IMG/VR virus record: IMGVR_UViG_3300047172_000021
Coordinates: 1-37,902 of that record
Strand: one strand, 5' to 3'
From: a virus
DNA length: 37,902 nt
The position numbers and the translations under genes are program-made. Shown piece after piece: positions 1,615 through 33,368 of this stretch; positions within the stretch are counted from its first letter, which is position 1; each line of letters starts with the position of its first letter. The notes beneath the pieces were generated by a model. It saw nothing but the letters and a program-made list of their open reading frames with translations, was not told the DNA's origin and did no database searches.

Positions 1615-1985
1615 TTTTCCTCGTTAACTGCGATTGTCGCGACGATAGTGAGATAATCGAATTCCACCGTCCCGTTTGTTGGATCGAGCTTTGTATCTTT
1701 TGTCGGACCATCTTTTGCAATTTCACCGAGACCCTTTGTTGTTCCCCAATTTCTTATAACGGCGGCGCTATGGACCTTACATTCAGAACCAGTTTTTTCC
1801 ATTTTTCCAACAATCACCCAGCCTCGCTGAAGTACGATTATTTTCCAGTCGCCGGAATATTCTTGTTTTATATCTGGCGTTGAATAATAGGTTTTTCCGT
1901 TTACTGTAATTGTCTCTGCTGATATTTGCACACTCTCTCCTGTGTTTAGTTTACGATAATGGTGCCATAATTGATTAAAATTCAT
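1596..1985 (-). CDS. Hypothetical phage protein
   Basis: ORF track, 129 aa. ATGA overlap with the recT stop. Sequence composition looks globular (RNWGTTKGLGEIAKDGP). Confidence 0.6.
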   Translation of the reverse strand: MNFNQLWHHYRKLNTGESVQISAETITVNGKTYYSTPDIKQEYSGDWKIIVLQRGWVIVGKMEKTGSECKVHSAAVIRNWGTTKGLGEIAKDGPTKDTKLDPTNGTVEFDYLTIVATIAVNEEKWKSLL

Positions 1986-2851
1986 TTACTCTCGAGCTTC
2001 TTCATTACAGCCGCTAGCTGAAATTGCTTTATATGCATAGCTGAATCTATTCCCATGTTTTTTAGCCTTAAGTCAACGGCCTCTTTTCCTTGATTGTGCC
2101 AGACCTTACATTGTTCATAAAGTTTTTGATAGTCCGACATGCTTATTGGCGACTCGTTCCTAACTTCTTTTTCTGAAGCACCATTTCTTTTAGGGTCTTG
2201 TTGAGTCTGCGTGAGTGCTCCAGAAGGACCTCCAGCCGACGCTGATCCTTCAAGAGTTGGTTTATTATTTGATTCTTTTGGTCTATTGTTTCCTGTGGGT
2301 TTTGCATCGCTTGTTTCCTTTTCTGCTTGCTCCATTTCATCTGAGCTGTAAATCCCGCTTAAATCGTTTGGGAAAGCCTTTCGAAGGGCTAGGGACTCTG
2401 CGACTTTTGCAATCATGAGGGCGGGCATTTTATTCCACATGAAGGTCAAATCTCCATTAGCTTTATATCCAGCATATTCCTGGAAATGCGCTATGCCGTA
2501 AAGGGCTTCTCTAAATTTAGAACGATAGACGCCGACTCTAGCCGCCCACGGAGCTTTTTCATGCAACCAAACGTCTTTCCAGACCCCGTCCTCTCCGCAC
2601 CACTCAGTTTTGGTCTGTCCTTCATAGTCACCAGATCTTTCAGCAATTAGTCTGAACCCATCAATGCTAGATACAATTGTTACTTTGCCGTTATTGTCTT
2701 TGATAAAATAAATCTGCTTTGAAAATGGGTCTAGCCCTGTTCGTTTGCATTGGTTGATAAAAAGGTTGAATTCGTCACTAGACGCCCCTTTCGCTATTGT
2801 TTTCTTTAAAAGCTCAATTTGATCTTCTGAATACACAACAAGATTGCTCAT
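1982..2851 (-). CDS. recT: RecT/Bet-family single-strand annealing recombinase
   Basis: 289 aa. The N-terminal two thirds read like the RecT family (FNLFINQCKRTGLDPFSKQIYFI, SIDGFRLIAERSG, MWNKMPALMIAKVAESLALRKAFPNDLSGIY). The acidic/Ser-rich C-terminal tail is typical. Confidence 0.85.
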   Translation of the reverse strand: MSNLVVYSEDQIELLKKTIAKGASSDEFNLFINQCKRTGLDPFSKQIYFIKDNNGKVTIVSSIDGFRLIAERSGDYEGQTKTEWCGEDGVWKDVWLHEKAPWAARVGVYRSKFREALYGIAHFQEYAGYKANGDLTFMWNKMPALMIAKVAESLALRKAFPNDLSGIYSSDEMEQAEKETSDAKPTGNNRPKESNNKPTLEGSASAGGPSGALTQTQQDPKRNGASEKEVRNESPISMSDYQKLYEQCKVWHNQGKEAVDLRLKNMGIDSAMHIKQFQLAAVMKKLESK

Positions 2852-3672
2852 TTTGCGGCCCTCAATAGTTTTAATAATTTATCAGCAAATTTAACATAGG
2901 CATTTTGTCTAGCAGCAGCATCAGCAAAAGCAACAGCATCAGCAAAAGCAACAGCCGCATCAGCAACAGCAGCAGCATAAGCAGCAAAAGCAGCATCAGC
3001 AGCAGCATAAGCAGCAAAAGCAACAGCAGCATCAGCAGCAAAAGCAGCATCAGCAACAGCATCAGCATTATAAACAGCATAAGCAGCATAAGCATAAGCA
3101 GCAGCAGCAGCAAAAGCAGCATCAGCAACAGCAACAGCATCAGCATCATAAACAGCATAAGCAGCAAAAGCAGCAGCATCAGCAGCAGAATCATCAACAG
3201 CATCATAAACAGCATCAGCAGCATCAGCAGCAGCACGCCTAGCTATTAAAAGGTCATCATAATTTATTACATCTTTTTTAAGTTCTTTTAGAACACCATC
3301 AACTGCTTTTATGGATCGTTCATTTTTAGCAGACTCTCTTGCGCTCTCCACAATAAAGATCAGCATCGGTATTAAGCATTTTGAAAGGTCTGCTCCTGGT
3401 GTAATGGCCTCTAAGAATTCACCGGGCCAACTTATCGCTCGATCATTTGGCAATCCTTCAAAAATTCGATCTTCAAGTTTTGCAATCCACTGTGGAATGC
3501 CTAGCTCTTTCTCATAAGCAGCATGGTCTGAGCCGTGAATGGTACAGCCGACAGCGCAACCCTTTCCGCCTTGCCAATATTGACCCTTAATAATCTGATC
3601 AAGCTTTTGGTGTTTTAAAACTCGATTCAAGTATTTATCTTTAATCTCTTGTTTTCCATGAAACGCAATCAT
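2848..3672 (-). CDS. Protein with a globular N-domain and an Ala-rich (A/D/F/Y/V) low-complexity C-terminal repeat
   Basis: ORF track, 274 aa. ATGA overlaps on both sides. N-domain carries QGGKGCAVGCTIHGSDH...LGIPQWIAKLEDRIFEGL. About 110 residues are of the type AADAAFAAYAAAVADAAVAFADA, encoded almost entirely by GCT/GAT/TTT/TAT/GTT codons. Confidence 0.65.
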   Translation of the reverse strand: MIAFHGKQEIKDKYLNRVLKHQKLDQIIKGQYWQGGKGCAVGCTIHGSDHAAYEKELGIPQWIAKLEDRIFEGLPNDRAISWPGEFLEAITPGADLSKCLIPMLIFIVESARESAKNERSIKAVDGVLKELKKDVINYDDLLIARRAAADAADAVYDAVDDSAADAAAFAAYAVYDADAVAVADAAFAAAAAYAYAAYAVYNADAVADAAFAADAAVAFAAYAAADAAFAAYAAAVADAAVAFADAVAFADAAARQNAYVKFADKLLKLLRAAK

Positions 3673-4190
3673 GATCTAACCCCAGGAATGAGTTTATATG
3701 TTGTGTTTAATACTGCGCCAGGGATCTCATCAGAATGATTCAGCAGCGCCATTTTAATAGCAATCTTGTCGGGCTCTATAGTTATTTTCTCTCTGCAAAA
3801 CGTTGCAGGAATTTGTTTTATATCTAAAATCTCAACGCTAGGAGAGCCTTTAGCAAGCTTGTACTGATGTTCTATTCCATTTAACTCAGTAACCTGTAGC
3901 TCAATCATTGATTGTTTAAGTCGTGTTTTTAAAAACTCCAAGGACCTGTTGTAAATTCCCTTTTTTGCCTGGTGCTGTTTAATGAACAGCTCATGTTGCG
4001 CAATCTTAGATTCAAGGGTGAGCTGCATGTTTCTATAGTTGTCTATTTTTGATTCTAAATCTAAGGCATTTTCGTTCATCCAAATGGTTACAATGTCCTC
4101 AATCTCAACATTGGTCACCTCGCCACCAGATTCGTCTAATAGCTGATTAATGGCGTGTCTGTCGTTTACAAGGTCTAGAAGAGTTTTCAT
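3669..4190 (-). CDS. Gp157-like protein (Siphovirus Gp157 family, usually linked to RecT/Erf modules)
   Basis: ORF track 3669..4232. I start at ATG 4188-4190 (MKTLLDLVN...), which is preceded by AGGAG and overlaps the upstream TGA (ATGA). The coiled-coil N-half, the C-terminal ...IPGAVL... pattern and the adjacency to recT all fit Gp157. Confidence 0.65.
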   Translation of the reverse strand: MKTLLDLVNDRHAINQLLDESGGEVTNVEIEDIVTIWMNENALDLESKIDNYRNMQLTLESKIAQHELFIKQHQAKKGIYNRSLEFLKTRLKQSMIELQVTELNGIEHQYKLAKGSPSVEILDIKQIPATFCREKITIEPDKIAIKMALLNHSDEIPGAVLNTTYKLIPGVRS

Positions 4191-29487: not shown

Positions 29488-30957
29488 CTAAAACATCCCA
29501 GAATCACTACTCCAACCAGAGCCATCATCCTCTGGCCAATTCTTAGATAAGTTCTCAATCAAGCGCTCGCGCTCTCTCTCCCAAATGCCGTCCGATTGCT
29601 TTTGATACCAGCCAGGCGACCCAACCGCTGGGAAGATTTCTTTAGGCGCCGAATGGTAATGATACGAATTCCGCCAATTATAAAGCATGGCATCTGTTCT
29701 GTGGTTTGGGAGAGATGGATGCTCTTTCTTTGGAATGGAGATTCTGTCTCCATCTGTCTTCCAAACGAGAGTGGTCAGCTCATTTATTAAGCCGACACAC
29801 CTCTCATGGATTTTGATCTTCCCTTGAATGAAGTCAGCGTTCATCATCTCAATGAAATCCACCTTGCCGTTTTTATCAGCATATTCGAATGGAATATTAG
29901 ATCTTTGCCTCATGGACTCCACGCCCTGCTTATTCGCGCCATCGATGATAATCCTAGAAGGAGATAAGAACGGGTGGGCCAGGTATTGATTAATCTTATC
30001 GGTCACCTGATCAAAGGTCATTTTAGGCTTAGCGAAGTCGTCAAAGATATAGAGATTCATGTCGTTCTCATGGAACATCGAATGAATGAACGCGTTATCA
30101 TCTTCCCATCCAGTGTCCACGCCTAATGTATAGGTCCAGCCATTGGGCGAGAGTCCTTTTGGGGGCTCTTTATAAAGGTTGCGGTCTGGGTTGAACTTAT
30201 AGACAAGCTTATCTTCTTCAATCGCCCATTGACCCAGATACATCTGCTTAAACATTGGAAGTTCTGTGATGTATGGCTGATTGGCCATAAGCTCTGCTAT
30301 TTCTTTAGCCCATTTGTCTTTCATATAAGGATTGTCAGCAGTGTTGGCTTTAACTAAATGCCAGCCGGGCTCTATTCCTGTTGTGATATCAAAGAATAGG
30401 CCACGGCAATAGTTCGATGGTGTTCCTATCATGCATATAGTTCCACCAAGATCGGCCATAGCTGGCTTTAGAATACCAAAGACCAGCTCTCGCATGTTGA
30501 TTGTAAAGGATGCGGCCTCATCGATAATAGCGACTTTAAACTTACGCCCTAGGATCTTGTTCTTATCGTCCTCTGATGAATCTGCGCCCATGAGATAGAT
30601 CACTGAGCCGTTCGGAAGGGTTGCGGTTAAGAGCGTCTCATTGAACTTCATATGAAGCTTATACTTTTGGTTTAGGACCTTTAGGATGTCCTTCCACATG
30701 ATACCTTTGGCTGAATCTCTCGTGAGCGCCACATAGAGGCAGCTTGTTCCTGGATGCTCTAATGCTTCCTTAATGAGATAGAGTCCTGCCGTATAGGATT
30801 TGCCGAAGCGTCTTGTGGCAAATAACGCTTTGAATTTAGCGGGATGGAGGATGAATTCAGTTTGAAGCGGGAAGTCTTTATCTAGCAGGTCTATGCCTTT
30901 TATCTCGCTATGAGATTTTGCAAGCCTTCTAGCTAAGATCCTTGCTGCGACATTCAT
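29488..30957 (-). CDS. terL: Terminase large subunit
   Basis: 489 aa. Walker A-like ATRRFGKSYT. Walker B-like KVAIIDEAASF. The C-terminal nuclease-like region has GVDTGWEDD. ATGA overlap with the MTase stop. Confidence 0.9.
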   Translation of the reverse strand: MNVAARILARRLAKSHSEIKGIDLLDKDFPLQTEFILHPAKFKALFATRRFGKSYTAGLYLIKEALEHPGTSCLYVALTRDSAKGIMWKDILKVLNQKYKLHMKFNETLLTATLPNGSVIYLMGADSSEDDKNKILGRKFKVAIIDEAASFTINMRELVFGILKPAMADLGGTICMIGTPSNYCRGLFFDITTGIEPGWHLVKANTADNPYMKDKWAKEIAELMANQPYITELPMFKQMYLGQWAIEEDKLVYKFNPDRNLYKEPPKGLSPNGWTYTLGVDTGWEDDNAFIHSMFHENDMNLYIFDDFAKPKMTFDQVTDKINQYLAHPFLSPSRIIIDGANKQGVESMRQRSNIPFEYADKNGKVDFIEMMNADFIQGKIKIHERCVGLINELTTLVWKTDGDRISIPKKEHPSLPNHRTDAMLYNWRNSYHYHSAPKEIFPAVGSPGWYQKQSDGIWERERERLIENLSKNWPEDDGSGWSSDSGMF

Positions 30958-32705
30958 TCAAGCCTTTTGCGCGCAATCTCCGCATATTCTGGGTTCATCT
31001 CAATGCCTATAAAAGCAAATCCTAGGCTCTTAGCTGCAACTCCCGTTGACCCAGATCCCATAAATGGATCAAGCACCGTTCCGTTTGGAGGCGTCACCAT
31101 CTTGATTAAGTATTCCATGAGCTTGATGGGCTTGACTGTAGGATGGAAATTCTCGTCAAAGGCTGGCGCACGAGCTAGTCCTTCACCAATTCCTGCATTG
31201 TGACGGCGCACAGCCCTCTTTGGCGTACCCTCACATCCACTATTCTTCTCAGATTTACTCGCCTTTGAGCAATAAAAGAATCGTGAGGCGCCGCCGGAGT
31301 CGCTATGTCCGCTTGAAGTTGCAGCGTGCCTTTTGAGAGAGCCAAACATGGCAACACTTTCTGAATCTTTGTTATTCCTAATTGCAGCCGATGATTTAGT
31401 AAATCCAATCTGCTCATCCAACATCGCCGCCGCTTCCTCGTCGAAGATGACGTTTGCAGGCCAGCGGCCTTGAGACGTCATCTCTCCGCTGTTGGTTTTT
31501 CCCGTTGATGTTCCAGACATAGAATTAGATCTGACAATTGTCTTCGTCCGAATCATCTTAGGGCGTTCCTCGCTACCAATCCGACTCGCATCCACATTGA
31601 TAGCACCCGTGCCATACTTCTGCACGTTTTGCGCAACGGTTAGGCCCTTCTCGAGAGGCTTGCGAGCTAAACAGATAGGTTCAACGTTTGGGGATAAGGC
31701 TATGGCCTTCGATGTAGCAGGCTCGTGAACAGAAGGTGTTTGGATGAAGTTTAATTTCTGTTCGAGAGCGCTCAAAAGACTTCCGACAGGTGAGGCACTC
31801 AACGGTTTTCCAAGCCCATCGTTTTGGAGCGTGTTCGGAGGCGTGCGCTTCAACAGACAAGACTTCAAGATTTTCAAGTCGGTTGTCAGACTTGATTCCA
31901 TTTCGGTGGTGAACGTGTTCGCGAGTTGCGAGGTCTCTTCCAAGATGTCGAGCCATGATAACTCGATGTTCAAGTTGGAATGCTTCTCCGATTCGGATCG
32001 CAACGTAACCATCGCTTCGGACAAAACGTCCGGTGTAAGCGTGATTTTTCCGGCAATCCATTGAGCAGTATTTAACTCCGTGCCGAACGCGCTTTGGTTT
32101 GACGCTGAATGATTTTTCGCAATTAACGCAAACAATAGTGATTGGCATTCACGAACCAAATTATCTATCAAAACCGCGCCAGTCAATGGTTTGGTGGCGA
32201 GGCAAATAATTTCCGCGGCTGGTTTTAAAGAAGTGCCCCAGCCTTGCCATTGTTTTGCGGCGTCGGTTGAAGGTACGGTTTCGAAATACTGACGGGCTGT
32301 AGTTTTTTTTTCTGATTGAAACGCTCTAGAATTAGAGCCTGCCCTGTTTGCATTACCAACAATCTCACGCTCAGCGCCCGCCGCCTTATCAATCGCTTTT
32401 GAGACATCCATAGACTTCGGAAACCCAGACCCATAAAGCCACATGATTTGGTCTCTGATTTCAAAGCCTGCATCTTCAATATTCACAGCCAAGCGGTGAT
32501 AAGTGCGAGTGCCGCCGAACGCGAGCAAATGACCGCCAGGTTTTAATACCCGTAAAGCCTCTCGCCATATTTCAACCGAAGGAACATCGCAATCCCACTT
32601 CTTTCCCATGAAGGAAAGGCCATAAGGAGGGTCCGTAACGATGGCCTCAACTGAGTTATCTTTTAATTCTTTCATCTGTTCTAGGCAGTCACCGATCATT
32701 ATCAT
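30954..32705 (-). CDS. DNA methyltransferase (beta-class N6A/N4C type, DPPY then FxGxG) carrying a ~177-aa internal insertion
   Basis: 583-aa uninterrupted ORF. Motif IV is IVTDPPYG at aa 22-29. Motif I is LDPFMGSGSTGVAA near the C-terminus. Also GTGAINVDASRIG, GRWPANVIFD and HPTVKPIKLMEYLI. The segment KPxxExICLAxKPL occurs twice (aa 161-174 and 338-351). Confidence 0.85.
   Translation of the reverse strand: MIMIGDCLEQMKELKDNSVEAIVTDPPYGLSFMGKKWDCDVPSVEIWREALRVLKPGGHLLAFGGTRTYHRLAVNIEDAGFEIRDQIMWLYGSGFPKSMDVSKAIDKAAGAEREIVGNANRAGSNSRAFQSEKKTTARQYFETVPSTDAAKQWQGWGTSLKPAAEIICLATKPLTGAVLIDNLVRECQSLLFALIAKNHSASNQSAFGTELNTAQWIAGKITLTPDVLSEAMVTLRSESEKHSNLNIELSWLDILEETSQLANTFTTEMESSLTTDLKILKSCLLKRTPPNTLQNDGLGKPLSASPVGSLLSALEQKLNFIQTPSVHEPATSKAIALSPNVEPICLARKPLEKGLTVAQNVQKYGTGAINVDASRIGSEERPKMIRTKTIVRSNSMSGTSTGKTNSGEMTSQGRWPANVIFDEEAAAMLDEQIGFTKSSAAIRNNKDSESVAMFGSLKRHAATSSGHSDSGGASRFFYCSKASKSEKNSGCEGTPKRAVRRHNAGIGEGLARAPAFDENFHPTVKPIKLMEYLIKMVTPPNGTVLDPFMGSGSTGVAAKSLGFAFIGIEMNPEYAEIARKRLE
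31681..32148 (-). CDS. HNH homing-type endonuclease (155 aa) nested in a different frame within the methyltransferase ORF
   Basis: ORF track. HNH core is EHRVIMARHLGRDLATREHVHHRNGIKSDNRLENLEVLSVEAHASEH. It is flanked by two zinc-knuckle-like units (CVNCEKSF...YCSMDC and CLTCRKSF...FCSRAC). Frame offset is 1 relative to the MTase. Confidence 0.8.
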   Translation of the reverse strand: MPITIVCVNCEKSFSVKPKRVRHGVKYCSMDCRKNHAYTGRFVRSDGYVAIRIGEAFQLEHRVIMARHLGRDLATREHVHHRNGIKSDNRLENLEVLSVEAHASEHAPKRWAWKTVECLTCRKSFERSRTEIKLHPNTFCSRACYIEGHSLIPKR

Positions 32706-32995
32706 TCGTCCTCAACTTCCTTAGCGCGCTCTTTTAGTTCATCGTCTGTGAGAGATTCCATTTCGATCTCCTCTTGGCGGATTAGTGTTGGCATCATCTT
32801 TATGCAATCCACGAGGGCTTTGATGTCATCCTTGCTCATCTGTTTATTGTAGGATCGATCGAGAAGCTCATCTGCTGTGCGGTTTAAAGTGTTTATAAGC
32901 TTCTTATGTAATTGACTCAAATTAACCTGTTTTAAGGATCGCGCCGCTCTAGAGCGTTTTTCATTTAAGGCTTTTTGAGTCGTTTTATCTGACAT
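32702..32995 (-). CDS. Hypothetical protein (97 aa; small-terminase position is possible but unsupported)
   Basis: ORF track. ATGA overlap with the MTase start. Charged and helical. Confidence 0.45.
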   Translation of the reverse strand: MSDKTTQKALNEKRSRAARSLKQVNLSQLHKKLINTLNRTADELLDRSYNKQMSKDDIKALVDCIKMMPTLIRQEEIEMESLTDDELKERAKEVEDE

Positions 32996-32996
32996 C

Positions 32997-33368
32997 CTAG
33001 AACTTCCTAGGTGACGTTCTGCCCGGTTCTGGTTTTCCTGATGCCGCTATCTGAATGGCTTGCTGTCTTGCTTGTAGTGCTGCTTGAGCAATCGGGCTTA
33101 CAACAACTGGTGCCATGGTCTGATCTTGAGGTGATGACTGCTGATTGCGCATTAGATCTGCTAGCTGAGCTTTTCCCATGCCTGGGTTTGCATCGATCAC
33201 TTCTTGAGGGATTGAGACCTGTGCAGATTTAGGTATTGGCCTTTGAATAGGGGCTGGCTGTAGATTCAGCTCCACTTCCTTGATTCTCTCAGCAATCAGC
33301 TTTTTAAGCTCTAATGGAGTGATGTCATTAAGCAACAGGTCTAGTAAGAATGATAATTCAGTCTTCAT
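32997..33368 (-). CDS. Hypothetical protein (123 aa)
   Basis: ORF track. In-operon spacing. Confidence 0.5.
   Translation of the reverse strand: MKTELSFLLDLLLNDITPLELKKLIAERIKEVELNLQPAPIQRPIPKSAQVSIPQEVIDANPGMGKAQLADLMRNQQSSPQDQTMAPVVVSPIAQAALQARQQAIQIAASGKPEPGRTSPRKF

Follow-up and report, generated by a model that had tools for sequence, protein, structure and literature searches.

A ShiLan-type HNH endonuclease gene nested out of frame within the DNA methyltransferase gene of a non-actinophage virus

The IMG/VR virus record IMGVR_UViG_3300047172_000021 (37,902 nucleotides (nt); hereafter the window, to which all coordinates refer) carries on its minus strand two overlapping open reading frames (ORFs): one of 583 codons for a beta-class DNA methyltransferase (30954..32705) and, within it and in a shifted frame, one of 155 codons for an HNH homing endonuclease (31681..32148). 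The window is a new, non-actinophage example, from an unrelated phage, of the ShiLan domain, an out-of-frame HNH described from mycobacteriophage DNA methylases (Gosselin et al., 2023, PMC9957025; Arsenault, Gosselin & Gogarten, 2025, PMC11855218). The explanation that we consider probable is that a hidden HNH homing element sits in the phage methyltransferase gene and is read through, without splicing. A preliminary description of this DNA, made from the sequence alone, had proposed a homing endonuclease cassette that entered the gene while keeping the host frame open, and this proposal is borne out: the methylase frame is free of stops across the nuclease in all 63 related loci, selection in the overlap tracks the HNH frame, Rfam detects no intron and Pfam no intein domain, and the insert is present in one and absent from the other of two otherwise closely similar mycobacteriophages, MISSy and Dusk.

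Results

An HNH gene inside a methyltransferase gene

The long ORF, taken from the ORF list and classified with Pfam, matches the N6_N4 methyltransferase family PF01555 with E = 9e-34, the match being split into two separated stretches. By Pfam and alignment, the N-terminal catalytic half (residues 1-160; 32226..32705) contains the motifs DPPY and W-x-G-W-G-T, and the half that comprises the target-recognition region and the S-adenosylmethionine (AdoMet)-binding site (residues 351-583; 30954..31655) contains HPTVKP and DPFMGSGST. Relatives without the insert are ~350-445 residues long, in keeping with the ~400 residues given for this methylase type in the preliminary description, and their alignments skip window residues 164-341; many other homologues, of 550-650 residues, align over the whole 583-residue query, insert included. 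The insert measures ~531 nt, of which only 63 lie outside the HNH ORF. When the AlphaFold model of the long ORF was compared with known structures by Foldseek, the top matches were the methyltransferases CcrM, M.BceJIV, TTHA0409, M1.HpyAVI and M.RsrI.

The nested ORF starts with ATG and lies in the -1 frame of the methylase: (32705-32148) mod 3 is 2, which places the HNH ATG two bases into a methylase codon. Its product has an HNH_3 core (EHVHHRNGIKSDNRLENL...H) between two CxxC...C...C knuckles, one N-terminal and the other C-terminal. It matches PF13392 (HNH_3) with E = 2e-10 and 40.6 bits, above the curated cut-off of 24.8, and HNH families of PHROG with E as low as 1e-18; in the HNH alignment H80, H81, N89, N93, H102 and the zinc-knuckle cysteines are invariant. 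Both ORFs therefore stand as first described, including the reading of the inner one as a complete HNH nuclease with two zinc-knuckle units, a reading that its profile matches and its conservation both support.

The nested ORFs of ShiLan, MISSy and their relatives are 41-42% identical to the window HNH over 99% of its length (E = 2e-28 to 2e-29); for ShiLan gp65, tblastn gave 41.9% identity across residues 3-155 (E = 2e-28). The nested ORF of Cylindrospermopsis phage Cr-LKS3 is 58% identical, and in general the window HNH is closer to those of environmental and cyanophage contigs (58-66%). Among GenBank phages, all 16 full-length tblastn matches of the HNH sit within annotated methylase coding sequences, and the nuclease is annotated in none of these 16 records. 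A further ORF, antisense to the HNH gene and inside it (31744..32064, plus strand, 106 residues), is probably spurious: antisense frames are interrupted in nearly all relatives.

Relation to the ShiLan element

The papers on ShiLan report an HNH in a third frame, a stop-free methylase frame, failed searches for introns and inteins, repetition of the first 11 residues of the insert, an AlphaFold model in which the insert is looped out, and a disjunct distribution (PMC11855218, PMC9957025). In a published BLASTP survey, nine phage methylases carried the insert (PMC11855218), and a hidden HNH of the same type has also been noted for phage Applejack (PMC12613952). The window shares with ShiLan the host family (PF01555) and the insertion point (...ALKPx / EPIxxARKP), which recurs in MISSy and Cr-LKS3, as well as the relation of the HNH frame to the methylase frame, the absence of stops from the latter, the repeated residues and a homologous HNH. 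It differs in belonging to a phage of 44.6% G+C without nucleotide similarity to GenBank phages, and in an HNH of 155 residues that starts with ATG and lacks the 10-residue segment following the first zinc knuckle of the actinophage version. New beyond the published work are the occurrence far outside actinophages, the Shine-Dalgarno (SD) sequence found before the HNH start in relatives, and the co-varying, selected copies of a core strand described below. A full-text literature search found no published experimental test of a ShiLan-type element.

An open methylase frame across the nuclease

The stop-free methylase frame across the HNH gene is more than chance. In the equivalent +1 frame of 17 further genes of the window a stop occurs every 19 codons, from which 8.3 would be expected per 155 codons. 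When the HNH protein was re-encoded with synonymous codons drawn from the phage's own genome-wide usage (20,000 draws), the methylase frame acquired a mean of 7.0 stops, and the probability of zero stops was 0.0002. We had also tried a within-gene synonymous shuffle as the null, for which the window's probability of zero stops is 0.75; it was replaced by the genome-wide resampling as too conservative, because the HNH gene, from which the shuffled codons are drawn, already avoids risky ones. In the methylase frame the HNH DNA reads as L/S/T-rich filler (about residues 186-337; 31695..32148), and the earlier impression of an off-frame-like segment that nevertheless contains no stop agrees with these numbers.

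Relatives in IMG/VR were searched for with the HNH protein alone, and the search is therefore not biased toward open methylase frames. It yielded 63 loci in which an HNH relative lies between recognisable methylase N- and C-terminal halves. Without exception, the methylase frame of these 63 is +1 relative to the HNH frame and runs across the HNH free of stops, whereas the remaining same-strand (third) frame has 2-21. Free-standing HNH relatives, 20 out of 20, have 1-7 stops in the equivalent +1 frame (Fisher p = 1e-19 for nested versus free-standing, the loci being related to one another). HNH segments with as little as 37% and as much as 67% G+C occur, so the open frame is not an effect of high G+C. 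Further nested, open copies were found on contigs assigned to Betaproteobacteria, Pseudolabrys and Kribbella and in a deltaproteobacterial metagenome-assembled genome (MAG), and the frame relation is unchanged even in locus L048, where a related HNH occupies another site in the methylase. It would seem that the cassette comes pre-adapted to being read through, and in one frame only.

Two loci hold decayed copies. L013 has a single methylase-frame stop (~2469), located in the linker that immediately precedes the HNH. In L087 (2200-4300) the methylase halves are frameshifted relative to the insert; the HNH is intact and bears an extra C-terminal zinc-finger extension (227 residues).

Selection in the overlap

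A codon alignment of 54 distinct nested HNH genes allowed the three same-strand frames to be compared. Pairwise amino-acid identity stands at 0.50 for the HNH frame, against 0.28 for the methylase frame and 0.26 for the third; across divergence bins the methylase frame (0.24-0.50) follows the third frame (0.23-0.48), and the HNH frame is far higher. Nucleotide identity at HNH codon positions 1, 2 and 3 is 0.58, 0.62 and 0.40, and the most variable base, HNH position 3, is position 2 of the methylase codon. Where the methylase frame does show peaks of conservation, these are the HNH frame seen through another frame: TFTTE..SSL.TDLKILKS is the HNH motif HVHHRNG..DNRLENLEVL read out of frame, and the "EC" conserved where the insert begins derives from the HNH start codon (GA-ATG-C).

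These patterns show that purifying selection acts on the HNH frame only, the methylase frame of the overlap being filler from which stops are kept out. The preliminary description had allowed that residues 185-337 might be an ordinary target-recognition domain. The segment is indeed common in homologues, yet its conservation in the methylase frame is at the level of the third-frame background.

Evidence for mobility

The cluster E mycobacteriophages MISSy, which has the insert, and Dusk, which does not, are 98.2-98.6% identical in the flanks. This identity extends to about methylase codon 124 and resumes ~310 nt before the end of the gene; between these points, a block of ~1.1 kb in MISSy replaces ~0.53 kb in Dusk. 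The MISSy block consists of the HNH together with ~250 nt of methylase sequence on its left and ~370 nt on its right, a pattern that matches the footprint expected if the element had homed with co-conversion of its flanks.

A duplicated core strand

The insert is bracketed by two copies of a motif, KPxxExxxxAxKP, present in longer stretches that read KPAAEIICLATKPLTGAVLIDNLV just upstream of the HNH ATG (residues 161-184; 32154..32225) and SPNVEPICLARKPLEKGLTVAQNV at its far end (residues 338-361; 31623..31694). Within these stretches, the core strand motif of copy 1, KPAAEIICLATKP (residues 161-173; 32187..32225), is a degenerate extra copy carried by the cassette, and that of copy 2, SPNVEPICLARKP (residues 338-350; 31656..31694), is the canonical strand. 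A linker (residues 174-186; 32149..32186) leads from copy 1 to the HNH start and shares its last codon with the ATG. The HNH TGA (31681-31683) falls within the GTT GAA codons (V341 E342) of copy 2, exactly where it had been placed at the outset. The first residues of the insert repeat those that follow the insertion (AEIICLATKP versus VEPICLARKP), and all 49 loci that align at the standard site show such a repeat.

The two copies in the window share eight residues (E, I, C, L, A, K, P and L), and only for the E is the codon the same. The preliminary description had recognised this duplication and its mostly different codons, and had suggested that the recoding might confer target-site immunity. 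That suggestion is not supported: at identical residues, codons are shared at a rate of 0.338 within a locus and 0.326 between loci. Active recoding, recent duplication and gene conversion of the repeat were ruled out on the same grounds, codon sharing being at the between-locus background, and the differing codons are best regarded as ordinary synonymous saturation.

Across the 49 loci, copy 1 no longer has the canonical P that follows E or the R that precedes K; its E165 and K172 are invariant and P173 is the consensus in 94%. Copy 2 retains the EP and ARKP of insert-free homologues, with A347, R348 and K349 invariant. Both copies keep E...A.KP, with codon positions 1 and 2 fixed and position 3 free, and copy 1 is therefore under protein-level selection despite its degeneracy. 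Moreover, the copies of one locus match at variable positions 104 times, compared with 66.9 +/- 5.1 for copies from different loci; with codon sharing at the between-locus background, this co-variation is therefore at the level of protein. In locus L052, for example, the copies read HETWWCAQNP and HEIWWLAKAP, both with subfamily-specific residues. L052 and L049 (methylase-frame ORFs 1908-3962 and 1869-3581, respectively) belong to a divergent methylase subfamily, marked by DPPAGIGFMGK... and by K-A-P-G in place of R-K-P-L, that has both the nested HNH and the duplicated strand.

In two AlphaFold runs, with alignments that did or did not include insert-free sequences, copy 2 forms a strand of the sheet (344-348) with a block-mean predicted local distance difference test (pLDDT) score of 74-92, and residues 176-322 of the insert are modeled as low-confidence helices away from the core. 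Copy 1 has a pLDDT below 50 in both runs, so that structure prediction suggests no role for it. We infer that both copies see the same structural environment, and we hypothesize that copy 1, evolving together with the core strand, serves as a structural substitute for it and aids the folding of the N-terminal half.

The start of the nuclease

Upstream of the window HNH (tttggttcgtgaATG) there is no SD sequence, a feature that 25 of the 34 window genes possess. The preliminary description had reported as much, and for the window this is correct; it does not extend to the family, in which 42 of 54 loci, those of ShiLan and MISSy (actGGAGGacgaGTG) among them, have GGAG or GAGG ahead of the HNH start. 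In relatives the HNH SD lies in the linker; in the window it is degenerate. The N-terminus typical of the family (x4-VCxxCGKEF) aligns with the start codon across loci. In MISSy (L001:2470-2503) and ShiLan (L003:2970-3003), GGAGG is found 4 nt upstream of a GTG that aligns with the conserved HNH N-terminus. The published analysis saw no ribosome-binding site and proposed that translation begins, leaderless, at a GTG 18 bp inside the insert and yields 195 residues (PMC11855218); the position of the SD-led GTG would instead imply an HNH product of ~169 residues in these two phages. For the family as a whole, an ordinary SD-led internal start seems the simplest reading.

In the HNH frame of the window, a TGA stands immediately 5' of the ATG and a TAA four codons upstream. 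In 48 of 54 loci a stop in this frame lies 1-34 codons ahead of the start, and in about 30 of these the distance is 10 codons or fewer. These stops rule out a frameshift fusion of the methylase N-terminal half to the HNH. We also discarded a separate C-terminal methylase fragment restarted at the HNH stop: no in-phase start codon was seen there in the window, and such a fragment is also unlikely because the open frame would then be unnecessary.

Discussion

A probable read-through element in a phage methylase

The probable course of events is as follows. A formerly free-standing HNH_3 gene would have lodged just before the conserved core strand EPIxLARKP of the methylase, where neither RNA nor protein splicing would remove it. 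The HNH would be translated separately from its internal start, which is SD-led in most relatives and weak in the window; its level is probably low, as ribosomes in the methylase frame would run over the HNH start. Those ribosomes would pass through the whole element, all stops having presumably been cleared from their frame by the choice of synonymous HNH codons. They would make a single polypeptide of 583 residues, presumably active as a methylase, in which ~150 unselected filler residues would be looped out between copies 1 and 2 and copy 2 would occupy the strand position in the Rossmann-like sheet. Alleles without the insert would be cut by the endonuclease within or close to the KPxxEPIxLARKP coding sequence, and an insert-bearing genome, used as the template for repair, would then donate the cassette together with flanking methylase sequence.

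Several points weigh against this picture. A megablast of the methylase gene against GenBank phages gave zero matches; the window phage thus has no isogenic or near-identical insert-free partner among them, and the evidence for mobility is evidence at the level of the family. The window HNH has no SD; its expression may be poor, or the copy may be decaying. Copy 1 is given no confident structure by AlphaFold although it is clearly under selection. Finally, the openness of the frame could be selected for translational coupling or to avoid polarity rather than for methylase function, since the terminase start overlaps the methylase stop.

This last point can be taken further, to a methylase that is dead or dispensable and an open frame that only avoids polarity on coupled downstream genes, here that for the terminase large subunit; we give this a small chance. 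The gene does overlap its neighbors on both sides: its start overlaps the stop of an upstream gene of 97 codons in a four-base ATGA (32702-32705), and its stop overlaps the ATG of the terminase large subunit gene (29488..30957) in another ATGA (30954-30957), an arrangement that suggests translational coupling from the upstream gene through the methylase ORF to the terminase. It is also true that the methylase is non-essential in some mycobacteriophage relatives (PMC11855218) and that L013, with its linker stop, and L087, with its flank frameshifts, are decayed. However, D25, P26, P27 and Y28 (the DPPY at residues 25-28), the HPT.KP motif, and D546, P547, F548, G550, S551 and G552 (the DPFMGSGST near the C-terminus) are invariant in 42 insert-bearing homologues. 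Outside the overlap, then, selection clearly acts on the methylase as a protein, with the catalytic motifs of both halves invariant. Taken together with the two strand copies, the catalytic and AdoMet motifs are invariant or nearly so in 42-49 sequences with third positions free, and the downstream gene context differs between phages while the frame is always open.

It is very improbable that the insert is spliced out as an unrecognised intron, or bypassed by the ribosome, to leave a normal methylase of ~406 residues. The duplicated border motif does resemble the similarity between exon and intron start seen in some group I introns (PMC11855218). Against this, a permissive Rfam scan (E-value mode) of 30700..33000 detected no intron family, only three chance-level matches to unrelated families, and the 63 of 531 nt outside the HNH ORF leave little besides it. 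Moreover, a segment that is removed needs neither phase nor freedom from stops, and 63 of 63 loci have both (with P = 2e-4 for the window); the copies are also alike in amino acids and not in codons, which is wrong for RNA guide pairing or for take-off and landing codons. The preliminary description had dismissed both a group I intron and an intein, and we agree on both: the long ORF has no Hint or intein domain in Pfam, no splice-junction residues and no intein blocks, the insert is predicted to be helical and shows no selection in the methylase frame, and the nuclease is out of the host frame.

Finally, the idea that the methylase-frame insert is itself a selected functional domain (an atypical intein, or a DNA-recognition or regulatory domain) draws on its presence in many full-length-aligned homologues, on the always open frame and on the AlphaFold helices at 176-322, some with block-mean pLDDT up to ~76, but we find it hardly credible when methylase-frame identity tracks the third frame far below the HNH frame, position 2 of the methylase codon is the most variable (unlike in a selected protein frame), residues 164-340 contain no Pfam domain or intein blocks, and the conserved "EC" is the HNH start codon.

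Comparison with other homing strategies

Intron-encoded HNH enzymes, of which I-HmuI from Bacillus phage SPO1 is one, are carried by self-splicing group I introns. The read-through element shares with I-HmuI an HNH_3-type nuclease with flanking DNA-binding modules, residence in a conserved phage gene and, if the proposed mechanism holds, cutting of the empty allele; it differs in having no intron detectable with Rfam and in a host frame that is read through. Free-standing homing endonuclease genes can instead split host genes, yielding two polypeptides, and the mobA/gene 60 cassette of T4 is accommodated by a 50-nt ribosomal hop. What these have in common with the window is a landing in an essential or conserved phage gene with neither intron nor intein, together with a compensating trick, which here would be a stop-free alternative frame giving one continuous polypeptide. 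Inteins with a homing endonuclease are likewise inserted in phase at a conserved site and translated within the host protein, but they encode the nuclease in the host frame and are cut out by protein splicing, whereas the nuclease of the window is in another frame.

A structural match to I-HmuI has been reported, and the same study describes a hidden HNH in Pacc40 gp60 (PMC11855218). The latter follows the same principle of an out-of-frame endonuclease ORF within an open methylase ORF, but the methylase family and the site are different and the endonuclease is unrelated.

Variants among related loci

The window itself resembles a complete phage genome in which the minus strand holds nearly all genes, and more than 65 nested loci were found in very different phages and prophages, that of Cylindrospermopsis phage Cr-LKS3 among them. 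Some depart from the standard arrangement. In L048 (2019-3359), a related HNH (45% identity) follows SGFPKS..GLWKG and precedes GTSLKPAWEPICLARKP. Here too the nuclease occupies the -1 frame and the methylase frame stays open; there is no second copy of the KPxxE strand. The nested HNHs of L062, L065 and L074 carry two additional zinc-finger repeats (each CxxCGK...FCSxxC) at the N-terminus, are shortened at the C-terminus, and are also read through.

Two loci, L017 (951-1748, minus strand) and L007 (1197-1952, minus strand), contain a second in-frame, junk-like insertion of ~250-290 codons between DPPYGL and FMGKKWD. Its opposite strand holds a conserved ORF of 251-265 residues (31% identity and E = 1e-36 between the two loci) with N-terminal CxxC zinc fingers and a Vsr-like "VEVNGTFWH...IWEHD" motif, for which Pfam gave only sub-threshold Vsr and PvuRts1I-like matches. 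From its sequence, this looks like an antisense-encoded hidden homing endonuclease across which the sense frame of the methylase is still open.

ShiLan (L003), L050 and L074 carry true inteins (WLYG|C...VTGN|SGFPKS) in the N-terminal half of the same methylases, as was already known for ShiLan. Since inteins and hidden HNHs occur in the same methylases, one gene hosts several mobile elements. Four short HNH_3 relatives (L095-L098) lie on a single 3.4-Mb contig of a Dehalococcoidia MAG, none of them flanked by a methylase, and may represent a multicopy mobile HNH.

The locus L085/L088 (NCBI MAG record JACQGO010000135.1) illustrates how gene callers choose one of two overlapping ORFs: the HNH is called as a gene, the methylase N-terminal half is uncalled and only a C-terminal fragment of 108 residues is annotated, even though the frame is open throughout. 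Usually it is the long ORF alone that is annotated and the nuclease that is missed, and the methylase lengths and "domains" recorded for this family are therefore misleading.

Implications

A wider proposal, which we put forward tentatively and think less likely than not, is that phage beta-class methyltransferases host a class of read-through homing elements, each combining a stop-purged frame with a co-evolving strand stand-in. Stops would have been purged both from the sense frame that overlaps a -1-frame nuclease, as in the window, and across the antisense Vsr-like nuclease of L017 and L007, and the duplicate strand would let the N-terminal half fold before the ribosome crosses the 150-codon filler. 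If so, homing endonuclease genes in coding sequence would have a fourth general solution beside introns, inteins and gene splitting, and the structural logic of such elements would be designable.

The element in the window would mean that a selfish nuclease gene can reside in a protein-coding gene without any splicing machinery, by means of one stop-free alternative frame. Its 468 nt of same-strand dual coding would pair an old, selected frame with a filler constrained only against termination. The element is widespread in environmental phages and prophages and is no mycobacteriophage curiosity, and it may offer a tractable system in which to study how far a Rossmann-fold enzyme tolerates an unselected insertion and how internal, out-of-frame initiation is controlled.

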